64,000 nt of DNA, taken from Clostridia bacterium (GTDB taxonomy: Bacteria; Bacillota; Peptococcia; Peptococcales; BICA1-8). Below, one piece after another: positions 4,400 through 56,492 of this stretch (its first letter is position 1; every line of letters begins with the position of its first letter). The notes below the pieces were generated by a model that saw nothing but the letters and a program-made list of their open reading frames with translations, was not told the origin of the DNA and did not search any database. The DNA lies in NCBI GenBank assembly GCA_030154225.1, contig JASKKI010000003.1, forward strand, positions 14,217-78,216, read 5' to 3'. Position numbers and translations under genes: made by a program.

Positions 4400-4438
4400 C
4401 TTAAATCTCTCCTTTTTCCTTTTGGGTTAAGCTTGTTG

Positions 4439-4569
4439 GTCAGATAACTGCTTAAGGGTTTAGCTTAAGGGTCAGACGCTCAATGTCAACCCAGGTGTAC
4501 GTCAGACGAAACAGCTAGACCAATCAGCCATTGTCAGACGCAAAAATTTAACTACCTGGTATTTCCGAC
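4439..4569. repeat. Phased ~31-bp repeat array 1 (5 units, GTCAGAC cores)
   Basis: Cores start at 4439 (GTCAGAT), 4471, 4501, 4533 (GTCAGAC) and 4563 (TTCCGAC). Spacing is 32/30/32/30 bp. The array lies between the stop of the YwlG-like gene and the start of glyA. Confidence 0.85.
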
Positions 4570-4601
4570 CTACAAAATGTCCCTTAAGATATTGTTAGCA
4601 G

Positions 4602-11189: not shown

Positions 11190-11209
11190 GGGCACTGGTC
11201 ACTGGGCAC
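11190..11209. repeat. Dispersed repeat, family B (GGGCACTGGTCACnGGGCAC)
   Basis: Matches 24032-24051 at 19/20. It abuts the prmC stop codon at 11211. Confidence 0.75.
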
Positions 11210-24031: not shown

Positions 24032-24058
24032 GGGCACTGGTCACCGGGCACTGGTTAC
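24032..24058. repeat. Dispersed repeat, family B copy
   Basis: GGGCACTGGTCACCGGGCACTGGTTAC, 30 nt downstream of the M23 peptidase stop. Confidence 0.75.
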
Positions 24059-31031: not shown

Positions 31032-32213
31032 CTATTTTGCTGCCATACTTATTTCTTCATATTTTTCTGTAATTTTTCTCACTCTTATTGGTTTTCCTTC
31101 TTTCATAAAAACCTTTGGTAAAGTTGGACTAATATTAGTTCTCCTTCCTGGCAACTCCACAATTTCACCTATTTTAATATCGGGAATATCCGAAACATCC
31201 AATATTGTCATTTGCATGCCAACCTTACCAATTATGGGAACATACTTGTCCCTAATTTTAACATATGTTTTTACCCGGGAATGATCAAGATAGCGTAATA
31301 TGGTTTTTCCTAAAATTTTTATTAAATCCATAACTCCTCCGGGCCTGGGAATGGGTTCAACGGAAAAACCGTGGGAAAAACCAACAGGAACAATAGCCGT
31401 TTTTGAATTCTTTTTTAGAATATGGGCTCGTTCATAACCTATGGAATGCCCTTTGGGTAGTTCATTAAGATAGGTAATTTGCCCCTTTAAGGCCCAGGCA
31501 TTTATTAATTGGCCATGAAAATCTTGTTTCCCGGCTACCTCTTGCCCATAAAGAATTGTTCCTGCTCTTACCATATCCAGATGCATTTCTGGAAATTTAG
31601 CTAAAGCAGCACTATTACAAATATGTTTCACGGGAATAATAAACCCCTTACTTTCTATAAATTCAATAGCTTTTAAAAACTCACTATATTGTTGCATTGT
31701 AAAAGAGAGATTATCCCACATAGCGGTAGCCAGGTGAGTATAAATTCCCTCTACCTCAATATTTTCATCATTTTTTAACAATCCGACCATCTCATCTAAT
31801 TGGGTATACTTAATCCCGGTACGTCCCAACCCTGTTTCTAACTTAATATGTGTTTTAACCTTTACTCCTTTATCTTTAATAAGTTTAATACTTTTTAAAT
31901 CAGCTAAGCTAACTGTAAGATCAAATTCTTTTATATAGTAGATATCTTCCGGTAAAAATGGACCAAAAACAAGTATAGGAACATTGATCCCTGCTTCCCT
32001 AAGCTGAATGCCTTCACTGATTTCAGTAACTCCCAGGTAATCTATGCCCTGATTTTCTAATTCTCGTGACACTTCAATTATGCCATGACCATAGGCGTCA
32101 GCTTTAACAACACCTAAAATTTTAGTCTCTTCCCGGACAAAATCTCTAACTTTTAGATAATTTTCCTTAATAGCATCTAAATTTATTTCAATCCACTTGT
32201 ACATTCTTATCAC
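31032..32213 (-). CDS. alr: alanine racemase
   Basis: 393 aa with the PLP-lysine motif VVKADAYGHG. Confidence 0.92.
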   Translation of the reverse strand: MIRMYKWIEINLDAIKENYLKVRDFVREETKILGVVKADAYGHGIIEVSRELENQGIDYLGVTEISEGIQLREAGINVPILVFGPFLPEDIYYIKEFDLTVSLADLKSIKLIKDKGVKVKTHIKLETGLGRTGIKYTQLDEMVGLLKNDENIEVEGIYTHLATAMWDNLSFTMQQYSEFLKAIEFIESKGFIIPVKHICNSAALAKFPEMHLDMVRAGTILYGQEVAGKQDFHGQLINAWALKGQITYLNELPKGHSIGYERAHILKKNSKTAIVPVGFSHGFSVEPIPRPGGVMDLIKILGKTILRYLDHSRVKTYVKIRDKYVPIIGKVGMQMTILDVSDIPDIKIGEIVELPGRRTNISPTLPKVFMKEGKPIRVRKITEKYEEISMAAK

Positions 32214-32260
32214 CTCGGTCTAGCTATAGGGTTAGATAAAGCTTACCGGTTTCATTTTCT

Positions 32261-32482
32261 GTCTGACAATACACCCGGGTAAACATCTTTCGTCTGACGT
32301 ACTTCTGGGTAAAGATTTTGCGTCTGACAACTCTTAAGGGTGCATCTTACCTGTCAGACAATTACTCACAGGTTAAACTCTTGTGTCAGACGTAAAAATT
32401 TAACTACCTGGTATGTCTGACCAAAAAGTCTAGCTTTTTAGCTTTGTCTGACGCACAAGCTAGACCCTTTAGTGTTTCTGAC
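32261..32482. repeat. Phased ~31-bp repeat array 2 (8 units, GTCTGAC/GTCAGAC cores)
   Basis: Cores start at 32261, 32292, 32322 (GTCTGAC), 32353, 32385 (GTCAGAC), 32415, 32446 (GTCTGAC) and 32476 (TTCTGAC). Spacing is 31/30/31/32/30/31/30 bp. Confidence 0.88.
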
Positions 32483-32505
32483 CAGCAAGCTTAGCCCAAA
32501 AGAAA

Positions 32506-33594
32506 TCATTTCTTTTTCAGTTTCTTCTTCAGAGCAATTAATTTCCGGATACCTTTTTGATATATAGGTTCTACTGTATGCCATAACCAGTAAGAGAAAG
32601 GTGCATAAACCAAATCAAATTCACCTACAAATTGTGTATAAACACCGTTAAAACCTTTTTTAAATTTAAATAGACCATAGAGGGGATTTTCTTCTGTTAA
32701 ATCTCCTGGTACCCCCCTGAAGTCATACAAAGTACAACCATTTTCTTTGGCCCACTTAATCATAGTCCATTGCAAGAGATAGTTAGGCATTACATTCCGA
32801 TAACTATTGCTGGAAGCACCATATATGTACCAGGCCTTCTTACCAAAAATAAAGGCTAAAGTTCCTGCAACATATTGACCGGCATATTCAGCCATAAATA
32901 GTTTTGCGTAACCCCGTTCTACTAAATAATCCCACATGTCTTCAAAATATCCATAGGAACGAACTAGAAAATTATCTCTCTCACAGGTTTCCAATAAAAT
33001 ATCATAGAAATTTTTCAAATCTGATTTTGAACATTTTGTTTTAATTGTTACTCCTTTTCTTTCTGCTAGGCGAATATTATATCTTGTTTTAGAGTGCATA
33101 TTTGCTAAAAGGGTTTCCAGGTCGGGAGTGATATCTAAGCGGAAGACAAATTTAGGTTGAATTCCTTCAAAACCTTCTCCCTTCTCCGCTGTCCGAAAAC
33201 CTCTTGATAAAAGAAGCTCTTTAAAAGCTTTATTTTCATTAGGTACATCAGGATCAATTTTTAAAAATATGGCATTATGTTGTTTTGCCAGCTTTTTAAC
33301 TTCTGTCAGGAGAAAATCAAAAACATCTTTATTTTCTATATCTAAAACAGGACCCCGGGGTGCGTAAAATATAGCTTTTTTAATTCCAGGTATAATCCTT
33401 TTTAAAATAGAAATAGCAGCAATAGGTTTGCCAGTTTCTTCTATAATCATTCTTAAAGGCTGCCAGCCTGTCTTTGCTTTTATTTCCCCCCATTCATATG
33501 ACTGTAAGATATGGCCCTTGGGAACGGAGGCAATAAAGTTATTAAAAATTTCCCTTTCATTTTCATTAATCAATCGTGCTTGCAATATTATCAC
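32506..33594 (-). CDS. FemAB-family peptidoglycan interpeptide-bridge aminoacyltransferase
   Basis: 362 aa with ILQSYEWGEIK and the overall FemAB-type pattern. Confidence 0.82.
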   Translation of the reverse strand: MIILQARLINENEREIFNNFIASVPKGHILQSYEWGEIKAKTGWQPLRMIIEETGKPIAAISILKRIIPGIKKAIFYAPRGPVLDIENKDVFDFLLTEVKKLAKQHNAIFLKIDPDVPNENKAFKELLLSRGFRTAEKGEGFEGIQPKFVFRLDITPDLETLLANMHSKTRYNIRLAERKGVTIKTKCSKSDLKNFYDILLETCERDNFLVRSYGYFEDMWDYLVERGYAKLFMAEYAGQYVAGTLAFIFGKKAWYIYGASSNSYRNVMPNYLLQWTMIKWAKENGCTLYDFRGVPGDLTEENPLYGLFKFKKGFNGVYTQFVGEFDLVYAPFSYWLWHTVEPIYQKGIRKLIALKKKLKKK

Positions 33595-49907: not shown

Positions 49908-49949
49908 TTTTACACCACCATTCTATTTGCTATTAGGTTTAACTTTAAG

Positions 49950-50263
49950 GTCTGACATTTGCTTAAGGGTCTAGCTATTGCGTCTGACAACTGCTCATGA
50001 GTTTAGCTTGTATGGCTGACAATTGCTTATACTGCAAGTTTTATGGGTCTGACATACTTCTAGGTCAGTTTATTGCGTCTGACGCAAGCATTGCATGTTA
50101 AAATATTATCAGACGCTCAATGTTCACCAAGATGTATTTCAGACGCAAAATATTCACCCAGAAGTACATCAGACGGAAAATGTTACTCAGAAGTATATCA
50201 GACGCAATATGTTAACCCGTAAGTATTGTCAGACGCAAAATATTCACCAGAAATACGTCCGAC
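49950..50263. repeat. Phased ~31-bp repeat array 3 (11 units) with an orientation switch
   Basis: GTCTGAC-type cores start at 49950, 49982, 50014, 50047 and 50077. TCAGAC-type cores start at 50108, 50138, 50168, 50197, 50228 and 50257. Spacing is 29-33 bp. Confidence 0.9.
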
Positions 50264-50284
50264 CCGAGATTTCAACCCACAAGC

Positions 50285-51574
50285 TCAGCGATTTTCGACC
50301 GCCAGGGCGTGGGTCTCAAAACCTTCTTCCCTGGCAAAAAGGGCCGCCTTATCTCTTACCCTTTTATAGCCTTGTTCAGTAACATAACCTACAGATGAAC
50401 GTTTTAGGAAATCAAAAACCGATACACTGGAATAGGTTTTAGCAAAGCCACCTGTGGGTAAAATGGCATTAGGCCCTAAAAGAAAGTTAGCTAAAGTTAT
50501 GGGAGCATTGTTGCCAAGTAGGATTTCTCCCGCGTTTTTGATTTTAGGTAATACGGCCCAGGGGTCACTGGTCATAATTTCCATGTGTTCCGGTCCATAC
50601 ATATTTACAAAATCTATAGATTGTTCAAGGTTCTCAGTTACAATTACCCCTCCATAACCATTAAATACATTATTTACAAAGTTCTTTCTTTGATCCGAAA
50701 GCTTTACTAATTGCTTTTCAATAATTTGTTTAACTTCTTCAACCAGGCTTTCCACATGGGTAACTAAAAGACTGGCCGAATCGGGACCATGTTCTGCCTC
50801 TATCATTAAATCAAGGGCAACTTTTTTGGCATCAGCAGTTTCATCTGCTAAGATAATAGCTTCACTAGGACCTGCCGGAGGGCCAACATCCAATACACCA
50901 CTTAATAAACGCTTAGCTGCGGTAACATATGAATTACCGGGGCCAATTATTTTACTGCAAGCAGGGATAGTTTCTGTACCGTAGGCGATAGCGGCAACTG
51001 CTTGAATACCACCTACTTTATAAATTTCTTTGACACCTGCCACTTTGGCAGCGGCTAAAACACTATCATCTAAACTCCCTATTGAATTAGGTGGGGTTAC
51101 AATAACAATCCTGGGAACTTGGGCCACAATAGCGGGAATGGCTAACATTAATAATACCGAGGGAAAACTACCTTTACCTCTGGGTACATAAAGACAAACA
51201 TCAGAAATGGGACTGGTTTGTTCTCCTACCATTACACCTGGAACTGTTTCCGTAAACCAGAGGGGTTCCGGCATCTGATGTGTATGAAACTTTTTAATAT
51301 TAGTGGCAGCAAACTCTAAAGTTTCTTTAAATTCTTTACTAATCCTTTCGTAACCAGCATTTATTTCCTCTTCAGTAACCTTTAAAGTTTCCGGTGACAA
51401 TTTAGCTCCGTCAAACTTTTCAGTATAATAACATACTGCCTTATCTCCTTGAGTTTTTACATCATTTATGATTTCCTGGGCAACCTTTAATTGCTCAGTA
51501 ATATCGGTTTCCGCTCTTTTTAATATTTTACCTTTGGTTTTTTCATCGAGCTCTTTCCATTTATAAATATTCAT
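50285..51574 (-). CDS. hisD: histidinol dehydrogenase
   Basis: 429 aa with GPGNSYVTAAKR and IEAEHGPDS. Confidence 0.95.
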   Translation of the reverse strand: MNIYKWKELDEKTKGKILKRAETDITEQLKVAQEIINDVKTQGDKAVCYYTEKFDGAKLSPETLKVTEEEINAGYERISKEFKETLEFAATNIKKFHTHQMPEPLWFTETVPGVMVGEQTSPISDVCLYVPRGKGSFPSVLLMLAIPAIVAQVPRIVIVTPPNSIGSLDDSVLAAAKVAGVKEIYKVGGIQAVAAIAYGTETIPACSKIIGPGNSYVTAAKRLLSGVLDVGPPAGPSEAIILADETADAKKVALDLMIEAEHGPDSASLLVTHVESLVEEVKQIIEKQLVKLSDQRKNFVNNVFNGYGGVIVTENLEQSIDFVNMYGPEHMEIMTSDPWAVLPKIKNAGEILLGNNAPITLANFLLGPNAILPTGGFAKTYSSVSVFDFLKRSSVGYVTEQGYKRVRDKAALFAREEGFETHALAVENR

Positions 51575-56228: not shown

Positions 56229-56249
56229 TTAGGAAAATTTTAAAAAGAC

Positions 56250-56492
56250 AAAACTATGACAGAGAAGAGTAATTGGTAGAATGCTAGCTAAAGAGAGTCG
56301 GTGCTGGTGGAAATCCGATGCTAGGACCCAATGAAGCCACTCTGGAGTGTTGTGTTGAAATATTAAGTAAACAAACCGGCTTCCACCGTTATAGGAAAGT
56401 GATTTGCACTAAGGGGGTCAACTATGACCAACTAGGGTGGTACCGCGTGATAATCTCTCGTCCCTACAATTTATGGGACGGGAGTTTTTTTT
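56250..56492 (+). promoter_or_regulatory. T-box riboswitch leader, alanine (GCC) specifier
   Basis: Stem I GA motif UGACAGAGAAGAGUA; AG bulge AGAGAG with distal GGUGG. Specifier loop GAA-GCC-A with GCC at 56336-56338. T-box sequence AACUAGGGUGGUACCGCG at 56430-56447. Terminator stem 56455-56484 followed by U8. Confidence 0.88.

Follow-up and report, generated by a model that had tools for sequence, protein, structure and literature searches.

The spacer between a FemAB-family gene and alr in a Clostridia bacterium is one copy of a clade-restricted, two-armed, modular intergenic repeat family

The array between the FemAB-family gene and alr

The window, which is the whole stretch of 64,000 nucleotides that was analysed, corresponds to contig C27:14217-78216 of the 2.68-Mb assembly of this genome (35% G+C; hereafter G000). 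On the minus strand it has the gene order pyrG, FemAB-family gene, repeat array, alr and response regulator. The 292-bp spacer between the FemAB-family gene and alr (fem-alr spacer) is filled by the array, which starts directly behind the fem stop codon and stops 23 nt short of the first codon of alr; if one extra weak unit is counted at each end beyond the cores described in the initial annotation, the array extends over 32237-32505. The features of the locus, followed by two sister arrays in the window, are:

31032-32213, minus strand: alanine racemase gene (alr), 393 aa, the downstream gene; Pfam PF01168 (E = 1.2e-59) and PF00842
32237-32328, minus strand: reverse arm, 3 units with cores at 32261, 32292 and 32322; from orientation scores, nhmmer unit hits and sequence
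32329-32384, no strand: centre module, two atypical pseudo-units around core 32353
32346-32376: hairpin of the centre module, stem CTTACCTGT (32346-32354) and ACAGGTTAA (32368-32376), loop of 13 nt (32355-32367); stem checked directly
32385-32505, plus strand: forward arm, 4 units with cores at 32385, 32415, 32446 and 32476 (TTCTGAC); from orientation scores, nhmmer hits and the 35/38 match of the first unit
32506-33594, minus strand: FemAB-family peptidyltransferase-like gene, 362 aa, the upstream gene; Pfam PF02388, E = 2.9e-65
4415-4593, no strand: sister array, two reverse and four forward units, between a DUF436 gene and glyA
49926-50287, no strand: sister array, about 5 reverse units, hairpin-type centre GCAAGCATTGCATG and 6 forward units, between hisD and hisB

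On recomputation the seven exact GTCTGAC/GTCAGAC cores (32261, 32292, 32322, 32353, 32385, 32415 and 32446) and the single TTCTGAC (32476) were found exactly where they had been placed before, and the distances between them (31, 30, 31, 32, 30, 31 and 30 bp) kept their 30-32 bp regularity. The initial annotation had interpreted these cores as an eight-unit array whose orientation flips twice. Two flips are indeed seen if orientation is read from the middle base of the heptamer. However, the core is near-palindromic, and its middle base is therefore a poor guide to orientation, whereas the 23-25 nt between cores are directional. Each inter-core segment was scored both ways against the consensus G-CAAAA-nn-TT-n-ACC-nnn-AAGTAT. 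By this scoring of whole units the array changes orientation once, at core 32385, where five reverse segments give way to four forward ones; segments of the reverse arm scored 10.5 and 17 in reverse and -1.5 and -7 in forward orientation against the family consensus. Instead of an eight-unit array, the actual structure is two arms and a distinct centre, which is the invariant architecture of the family (see below).

Read forward on the minus strand, the units of the reverse arm have the form GTCAGAC-G-CAAAA..TT.ACC...AAGTAT. The outermost of them (32237-32260) is weak, and the 23 nt separating this arm from the alr start codon contain the ribosome-binding site. At the other end the forward arm adjoins the stop codon of the FemAB-like gene (32506-32508). 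The hairpin of the centre module forms the apex of the predicted fold of the spacer. Over 73 bp (32333-32405) the centre is 92% identical to the centre of an array on another contig (C79:9928-10000), the arms of which differ.

Neither a sigma-70-like promoter nor an intrinsic terminator was found in a scan of the fem-alr spacer. A candidate promoter TTCACC-N17-CAAAAT across unit junctions was rejected, because it lacks conservation at -11 and nothing promoter-like turned up in the scan. A coding reading was dismissed as well, since units of 30-32 nt shift the frame and GTCTGAC gives an in-frame TGA within three units. No Rfam family matched the array at gathering score, nor did any reach E <= 1 when 32150-32570 was compared. 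Elsewhere in the window lies a T-box leader (RF00230, 131 bits; 56247-56468, plus strand), which is unrelated to the array.

The GTCWGAC heptamer occurs 16 times in the window, compared with 1.84 expected, and none of 100 shuffles reached 16. The earlier view that the three arrays share homologous units and not the core alone was borne out. Segment 32385-32422 matches 4533-4570 at precisely 35 of 38 positions, reverse-complemented units resemble the array at 50 kb (0.91 for 32299-32321 and 0.75 for 32268-32291, outside the core), and inter-core segments have a mean similarity of 0.54, with 0.83-0.96 for the best-matching pairs among the three arrays, whereas 24-mers drawn at random from intergenic DNA of G000 average 0.46 (sd 0.05). 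From these likenesses a common origin, spread or homogenisation had been proposed. For unit comparison and a maximum-likelihood tree the three arrays were cut into 27 units. Similarity was 0.533 within and 0.537 between loci (permutation p = 0.62), the locus label needed 12 changes on the tree versus 12.6 when shuffled, and 22 of the 27 units had their best partner at another locus; the only well-supported pair in the tree joins a 4.5-kb unit with a 32-kb unit. What remains of the proposal is one spread family with subtypes common to several loci, without homogenisation or concerted evolution within a locus. The homology of the units thus goes well beyond the heptamer, and the shared subtypes together with the lack of a within-locus excess indicate spread rather than local origin. 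Genome-wide, unit identity came to 0.51 for pairs from one arm, 0.45 for pairs from opposite arms and 0.49 for pairs from different arrays.

Units, arms and centres in the genome

G000 contains 183 heptamers, and the distances between neighbours peak at 29-32, 60-63, 90-93 and 121-123 bp. As these peaks derive from the whole assembly, the phasing is real and genome-wide. With an nhmmer unit model iterated on G000, about 165 units were detected in 32 multi-unit arrays, all of them intergenic. The unit is 30-32 bp long, approximately three helical turns, and consists of the invariant near-palindromic core GTCWGAC and a directional, semi-conserved segment G-C...A..TT.AC.....AGTA. Conserved besides the core are G8, C9, A13, T16, T17, A19, C20 and A26-A29, and the same positions stand out in the logos of G000 and of its relative G008. 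Judged from the sequences, these shared positions would be the signature of one predicted, conserved factor that reads the unit in double- or single-stranded DNA, or else of continued copying from similar masters.

Within the arms the units are arranged head to tail, and both arms point away from the centre module. Reverse units precede forward units in every G000 array; for the two-armed arrays (26 of 26) the probability of this by chance is about 1e-29. The arms are often unequal, and single-arm arrays account for 7 of the 32 in G000 and for 10 of 21 in a sample from G008. The centre is often a short hairpin whose stem takes in the two innermost cores. A few types of centre recur between arrays with different arms, namely the hairpin AGCATTGCATGCT, a CACTGGK heptamer run and the fem-alr type. 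Unit quality did not depend on rank from the centre (rho = 0), and growth from the centre or from the edges was not seen.

The arrays fill entire spacers. Each of the three window arrays does sit between co-directional genes, as had been remarked (DUF436 to glyA, FemAB-like to alr, hisD to hisB), but neither this setting nor the three loci are special: there are 32 arrays in the genome, and 25 of the 27 with two neighbours lie between co-directional genes, which is no different from the background of 83%. The DUF436/glyA and hisD/hisB neighbours were assigned by Pfam; other arrays are presumably next to tsaD, glmM, etfAB, tex, a P-type ATPase gene and gerA-type genes, as judged by reading of the translations. 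The flanking genes are unrelated, ordinary housekeeping genes. On the chromosome the arrays are clustered, with 12 neighbour pairs closer than 10 kb compared with 2.7 expected (0/2000).

Five G000 arrays were found at contig ends (C12:10321-10520, C31:8898-8994, C49:27952-28074, C48:1-295 and C64:1-270). Because arrays break the assembly in this way, the number of 32 is a lower bound; the identical units at the ends of C31 and C49 suggest that these two contigs probably adjoin. Near-identical whole arrays at two loci were not found in G000, thus recent movement is not supported.

Distribution and turnover in related genomes

The genomes G001-G008 are relatives of G000 in one family of uncultured subsurface Clostridia, G008 being Clostridiaceae bacterium BRH_c20a. 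A triple-core pattern had 28 matches in G000, 16 in G004, 2 in G005, 7 in G006, 12 in G007 and 57 in G008, the last of which is to be read as at least 57, so that the range per genome is 0 to at least 57. It was absent from three other family genomes and from 32 sister-family genomes; three genomes of the family have no arrays or relics only. When a stricter pattern was applied to all 88 species of the class, matches were obtained in five genomes, all of this family, with zero control hits. Five to six of the nine family genomes have the pattern, whereas the 79 remaining species lack it; only one of the 13 families of the class is represented. A GTDB-wide scan was dominated by chance matches in GC-rich genomes; among the matches listed there were at least four true member loci, from three records (Clostridiaceae bacterium BRH_c20a, Peptococcaceae bacterium BICA1-8 and Clostridia bacterium AS01afH2WH_13). 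A phage, plasmid or viral origin was rejected, as there were no blastn matches and six viral pattern matches do not fit the unit model.

The polarity rule holds also in G008, where 21 arrays sampled by position obey it, as do 27 arrays found in a fully read portion of 742 kb. The units of this genome are cleaner (31-32 bp), with GTCTGAC in the reverse and GTCAGAC in the forward arm, and the usual centre, GTCTGAC-ACAAGC...GCTTGT-GTCAGAC, is a hairpin with a stem that includes the two innermost cores. Beside one array centre of G008 (C29:31528-31662) there are four adjacent, nearly identical units (GTCTGAC AATTACTTATGGGTCTAGCTTTTGC), a sign of recent tandem duplication. The same GTCTGAC AATTACTTATGGGTCTAGCTTTTGC unit is carried by the contig end G008:C56:1-71.

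All nine genomes of the family have fem and alr in synteny. The content of the spacer in the relatives is as follows:

G001: three forward units
G002: no units, 46 bp between the aligned gene ends
G003: one forward unit
G004: heptamer run only
G005 (C94:1-355): GC-rich unit variant, amplified three-unit block
G006: heptamers and one unit
G007: 3 reverse units, centre, 2 forward units
G008: 6 reverse units, centre with heptamers, 4 forward units

Across genera the number of units is thus 0, 1, 3, about 5 or about 10, and the sequence of the spacer has turned over completely while the repeat persists. In metagenomic relatives outside the family, fem and alr are 10-25 bp apart and there are no units. 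The GC-rich variant of G005 is organized in a higher-order block of three units (approximately 90 bp), which is repeated at least three times and runs into the contig end; these repeats indicate that arrays can expand by multi-unit blocks. At two other loci, arrays of G008 and G004, or of G008 and G007, are matched by empty spacers of 36-39 bp in G007 or G000, and the comparison of filled and empty sites at these two loci revealed no target-site duplication and no sharp terminal sequence. One orthologous array differs between G008 and G004 by whole units. Between the genes for the transketolase subunits there is a full array in G008 and G007, and a clean spacer of 39 bp in G000 (C110:5787-5825). 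These comparisons suggest that the element is old in the family, where it appears to be gained or lost locus by locus and remodelled unit by unit.

Possible roles and comparison with known repeats

The fem-alr spacer is one copy of a clade-restricted, two-armed, modular intergenic repeat family, which resembles selfish or neutral DNA more than a control element of fem or alr. The family has apparently not been described before; a literature search on GTCAGAC repeats and on BRH_c20a turned up no account of it. The explanation that we favour, with moderate confidence, is selfish or near-neutral, non-autonomous DNA of the BIME/REPIN-like kind, which is read at its core by a putative protein and tolerated in operon spacers. 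The shared architecture, the unit subtypes common to several loci, the restricted and patchy distribution, the variation in copy number, the filled and empty sites, the lack of strand and orientation bias, the absence of promoter, terminator and Rfam signals, and the clustering of arrays were counted for the selfish or neutral reading. Counted against it were the private hairpins of the single RAYT gene (see below), the search for a mobilising or binding protein, which found none, and the absence of a gene between arms, of a target-site duplication and of near-identical whole arrays in G000. Persistence in the same spacer and the strict conservation of the core and other positions across genera could instead reflect a host function. 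The element would have entered operon spacers in an ancestor of the bacterial family, and its core would be recognised as DNA by a sequence-specific protein. It may have persisted because it carries no promoter or terminator and would be read through within the polycistronic transcript. Change would take place mainly as slippage between cores adds or removes whole units, as several units are amplified together, and as loci exchange blocks.

A host role at the level of DNA is possible but doubtful. The units would then be phased landing pads for an abundant, clade-specific DNA-binding protein (nucleoid-associated, gyrase/IHF-like or partition-like), a dimer of which would sit on the palindromic core, on one helix face, with assembly proceeding outward from the centre as has been proposed for E. 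coli BIMEs. Such a protein would be consistent with a nearly invariant core in an otherwise varying unit, with the same extra positions conserved in two genera, with the length of the unit near three helical turns, with the strict polarity away from the centre in every array, with the regional clustering, and with retention of the repeat in the fem-alr spacer across genera despite the turnover of its sequence. It is less easily reconciled with the three family genomes that have no arrays or relics only, with the empty sites of related genera and a copy number of 0 to at least 57, or with unbalanced arms and the common single arms, and in our search no mobilising or binding protein for the units, and no candidate for this role, was found. 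A more far-reaching proposal, to which we attach little probability, is that the 31-bp unit is the recognition module of a putative clade-specific protein nucleating at the central dyad or hairpin and loading outward along the arms; the arrays would then be new chromosomal organising or fork/supercoil-handling sites, or the ends of a new mobile element replicating as a module. If the outward-loading reading were true, such a mechanism would have left its footprint in the strict outward polarity of more than 50 arrays.

At the level of RNA, the arms could pair in the fem-alr transcript as a long imperfect hairpin and act as a processing or stability element (RNase III site, 3'-exonuclease barrier), or bring the stop and the start into proximity for translational coupling. 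The spacer folds far better than its shuffles (RNA, z = -6.9 for the plus strand and -4.0 for the mRNA sense; DNA, z = -4.6), the flanking genes are co-directional, with neither promoter nor terminator between them, and arrays extend from the stop codon to shortly before the ribosome-binding site. We nevertheless consider this role unlikely. The antisense strand folds better at the fem-alr locus (-96 versus -87 kcal/mol), and 11 of 19 two-armed co-directional arrays have their more stable fold in the sense strand (p = 0.57). Complementarity between arm units that share a rank (0.445) does not exceed that of any other pair (0.49), and this lack of rank-matched pairing indicates that the fold stems from the generic consensus and not from maintained pairing. 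Arms are unbalanced, many arrays have a single arm, which can be in either orientation relative to transcription (5 versus 5 in G008, 3 versus 3 in G000), some arrays are between convergent or divergent genes, and there is no Rfam match. The absence of a sense bias, of rank pairing and of an orientation rule for single arms argues against a strand-specific RNA element. The palindromic, phased cores upstream of alr might also be taken for operator sites of a transcription factor controlling alr or cell-wall genes. With units in 32 spacers beside unrelated housekeeping genes, no promoter in the spacer, and relatives that have the same gene pair but no units, such gene-specific regulation is highly improbable and close to refuted.

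REP, BIME, BOX and NTS repeats have repeatedly pointed the way to new DNA-handling enzymes (RAYT, Ssn), and influences on the stability of mRNA and the plasticity of genomes have come to light through them as well. The present family has an unusually strict and simple grammar (the 7-bp dyad is invariant, units recur every three helical turns, and the arms always diverge from a centre), which makes it a clean system for finding a reader protein, and its arrays reside in housekeeping operons of spore-forming subsurface bacteria. In practical terms, the repeat fragments the assemblies of its host genomes, and it could pass for regulatory sites before alr, hisB, glyA or germination genes. New from this analysis are the polarity rule and the centre modules, the absence of concerted evolution and of an orientation rule with respect to transcription, the filled and empty sites, and the separation from the heptamer and RAYT elements.

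Selfish or near-neutral DNA of BIME/REPIN-like kind implies comparison with REP, BIME and REPIN sequences. These share with the GTCWGAC family short intergenic units in tens to hundreds of copies, often inside operons and clade-specific, mosaic clusters of unit subtypes and other motifs, and foldable inverted arrangements. Dispersal of the family is of the REP type (32 arrays, 165 units, all intergenic, one family of the class). A CGTC at the core junction (GCGTCTGAC), where G8 and C9 are conserved, is a candidate counterpart of the conserved GTAG or CGTC tetranucleotide at one end of the REP unit. The REP/BIME/REPIN unit is a self-folding imperfect palindrome of 20-40 nt, whereas in the GTCWGAC unit only the 7-bp core is dyad-symmetric; there is no hairpin inside a unit, and three consensus units fold at -9.3 kcal/mol only. 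The former alternate in orientation and have hosts among Proteobacteria, the latter are direct tandem units within each arm and have a Firmicute host.

A further difference is that REP/BIME/REPIN sequences flank their cognate RAYT (Y1 transposase), whereas the RAYT homologue of G000 is without GTCWGAC units. It is the sole one in this genome (C90:17193-18026, minus strand, 277 aa; NF047646, 83.5 bits versus a cut-off of 80) and ends in a C-terminal sigma-70 region-4-like helix-turn-helix; in relatives up to 19 copies are present, the maximum being that of G008. The gene is bracketed by GGGACGGTTC hairpins, two tandem copies downstream and one inverted upstream, and this GC-rich hairpin repeat is private to the RAYT locus and occurs nowhere else in G000. 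GTCWGAC was absent within 1.5 kb of six Y1 loci in six genomes (the G000 RAYT and five in relatives). A link between the arrays and RAYT was rejected, because the two are not physically associated and because, over nine genomes, Y1_Tnp copies and arrays increased together only roughly.

MITEs are marked by defined terminal inverted repeats, target-site duplication and near-identical copies, whereas filled and empty sites at two loci of the GTCWGAC family showed neither duplication nor sharp ends, and no two whole arrays of G000 were near-identical. CRISPR loci have identical repeats of 24-48 bp and unrelated spacers, whereas here the constant part is 7-9 bp and the 'spacers' are mutually homologous. 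Mycobacterial MIRUs are tandem intercistronic units of 40-100 bp, in one orientation relative to transcription and with small coupling ORFs. Like the arrays described here they fill operon spacers with a variable number of tandem units, and they can also provide the upstream gene with its stop codon, but they are without the opposed arms and the invariant palindromic core. The BOX elements of Streptococcus pneumoniae have the structure boxA-(boxB)n-boxC (PMC3049150). They too are modular intergenic repeats of a Firmicute, foldable, with variable tandem internal modules and situated in transcribed spacers. Nevertheless, in BOX the variable module is central between distinct ends, whereas the GTCWGAC arrays have variable arms, a distinct centre and ordinary outermost units, and there is no sequence relationship between the two. 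The NTS/dRS3 repeats of Neisseria are recognised by the GIY-YIG nuclease Ssn (PMC11893778); the likeness lies in an oriented repeat of approximately 30 bp whose flank is of the CGTC type, which numbers hundreds of copies, gathers around genes and has a dedicated protein reader (PMC11893778). NTS is, however, a hairpin adjoining its nuclease gene, whereas the GTCWGAC unit forms no hairpin and no unit-flanked gene was found.

Two inverted tandem-repeat arms around a centre are also present in cassettes with PF05635 genes in the relatives. In these the arms consist of 7-8 bp repeats and flank a gene, whereas GTCWGAC arms consist of 31-bp units and none encloses a gene; no gene was found between a reverse and a forward arm in all of G000 or in 742 kb of G008. 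PF13366 was absent from eight of the nine genomes, with a single match in G005. The PF05635 genes, whose product we take to be the four-helix-bundle 23S rRNA IVP, occur in all relatives G001-G008 and not in G000, and are enclosed by inverted CACTAGT/CACTGGG heptamer runs, not by GTCWGAC units. Since heptamers bracket PF05635 genes in the relatives, heptamer runs are a second element that shares spacers, and sometimes array centres, with the GTCWGAC family. G000 itself has 16 intergenic runs of the 7-bp repeat CACTGGK/CACTAGT, five of them in centres of GTCWGAC arrays, and by their sequence these look like gene-less remnants of the PF05635 cassette family. Heptamer runs are located in the window at 11193-11209 and 24035-24051, and on contigs C8, C11, C41, C87, C89, C94, C103 and C107.
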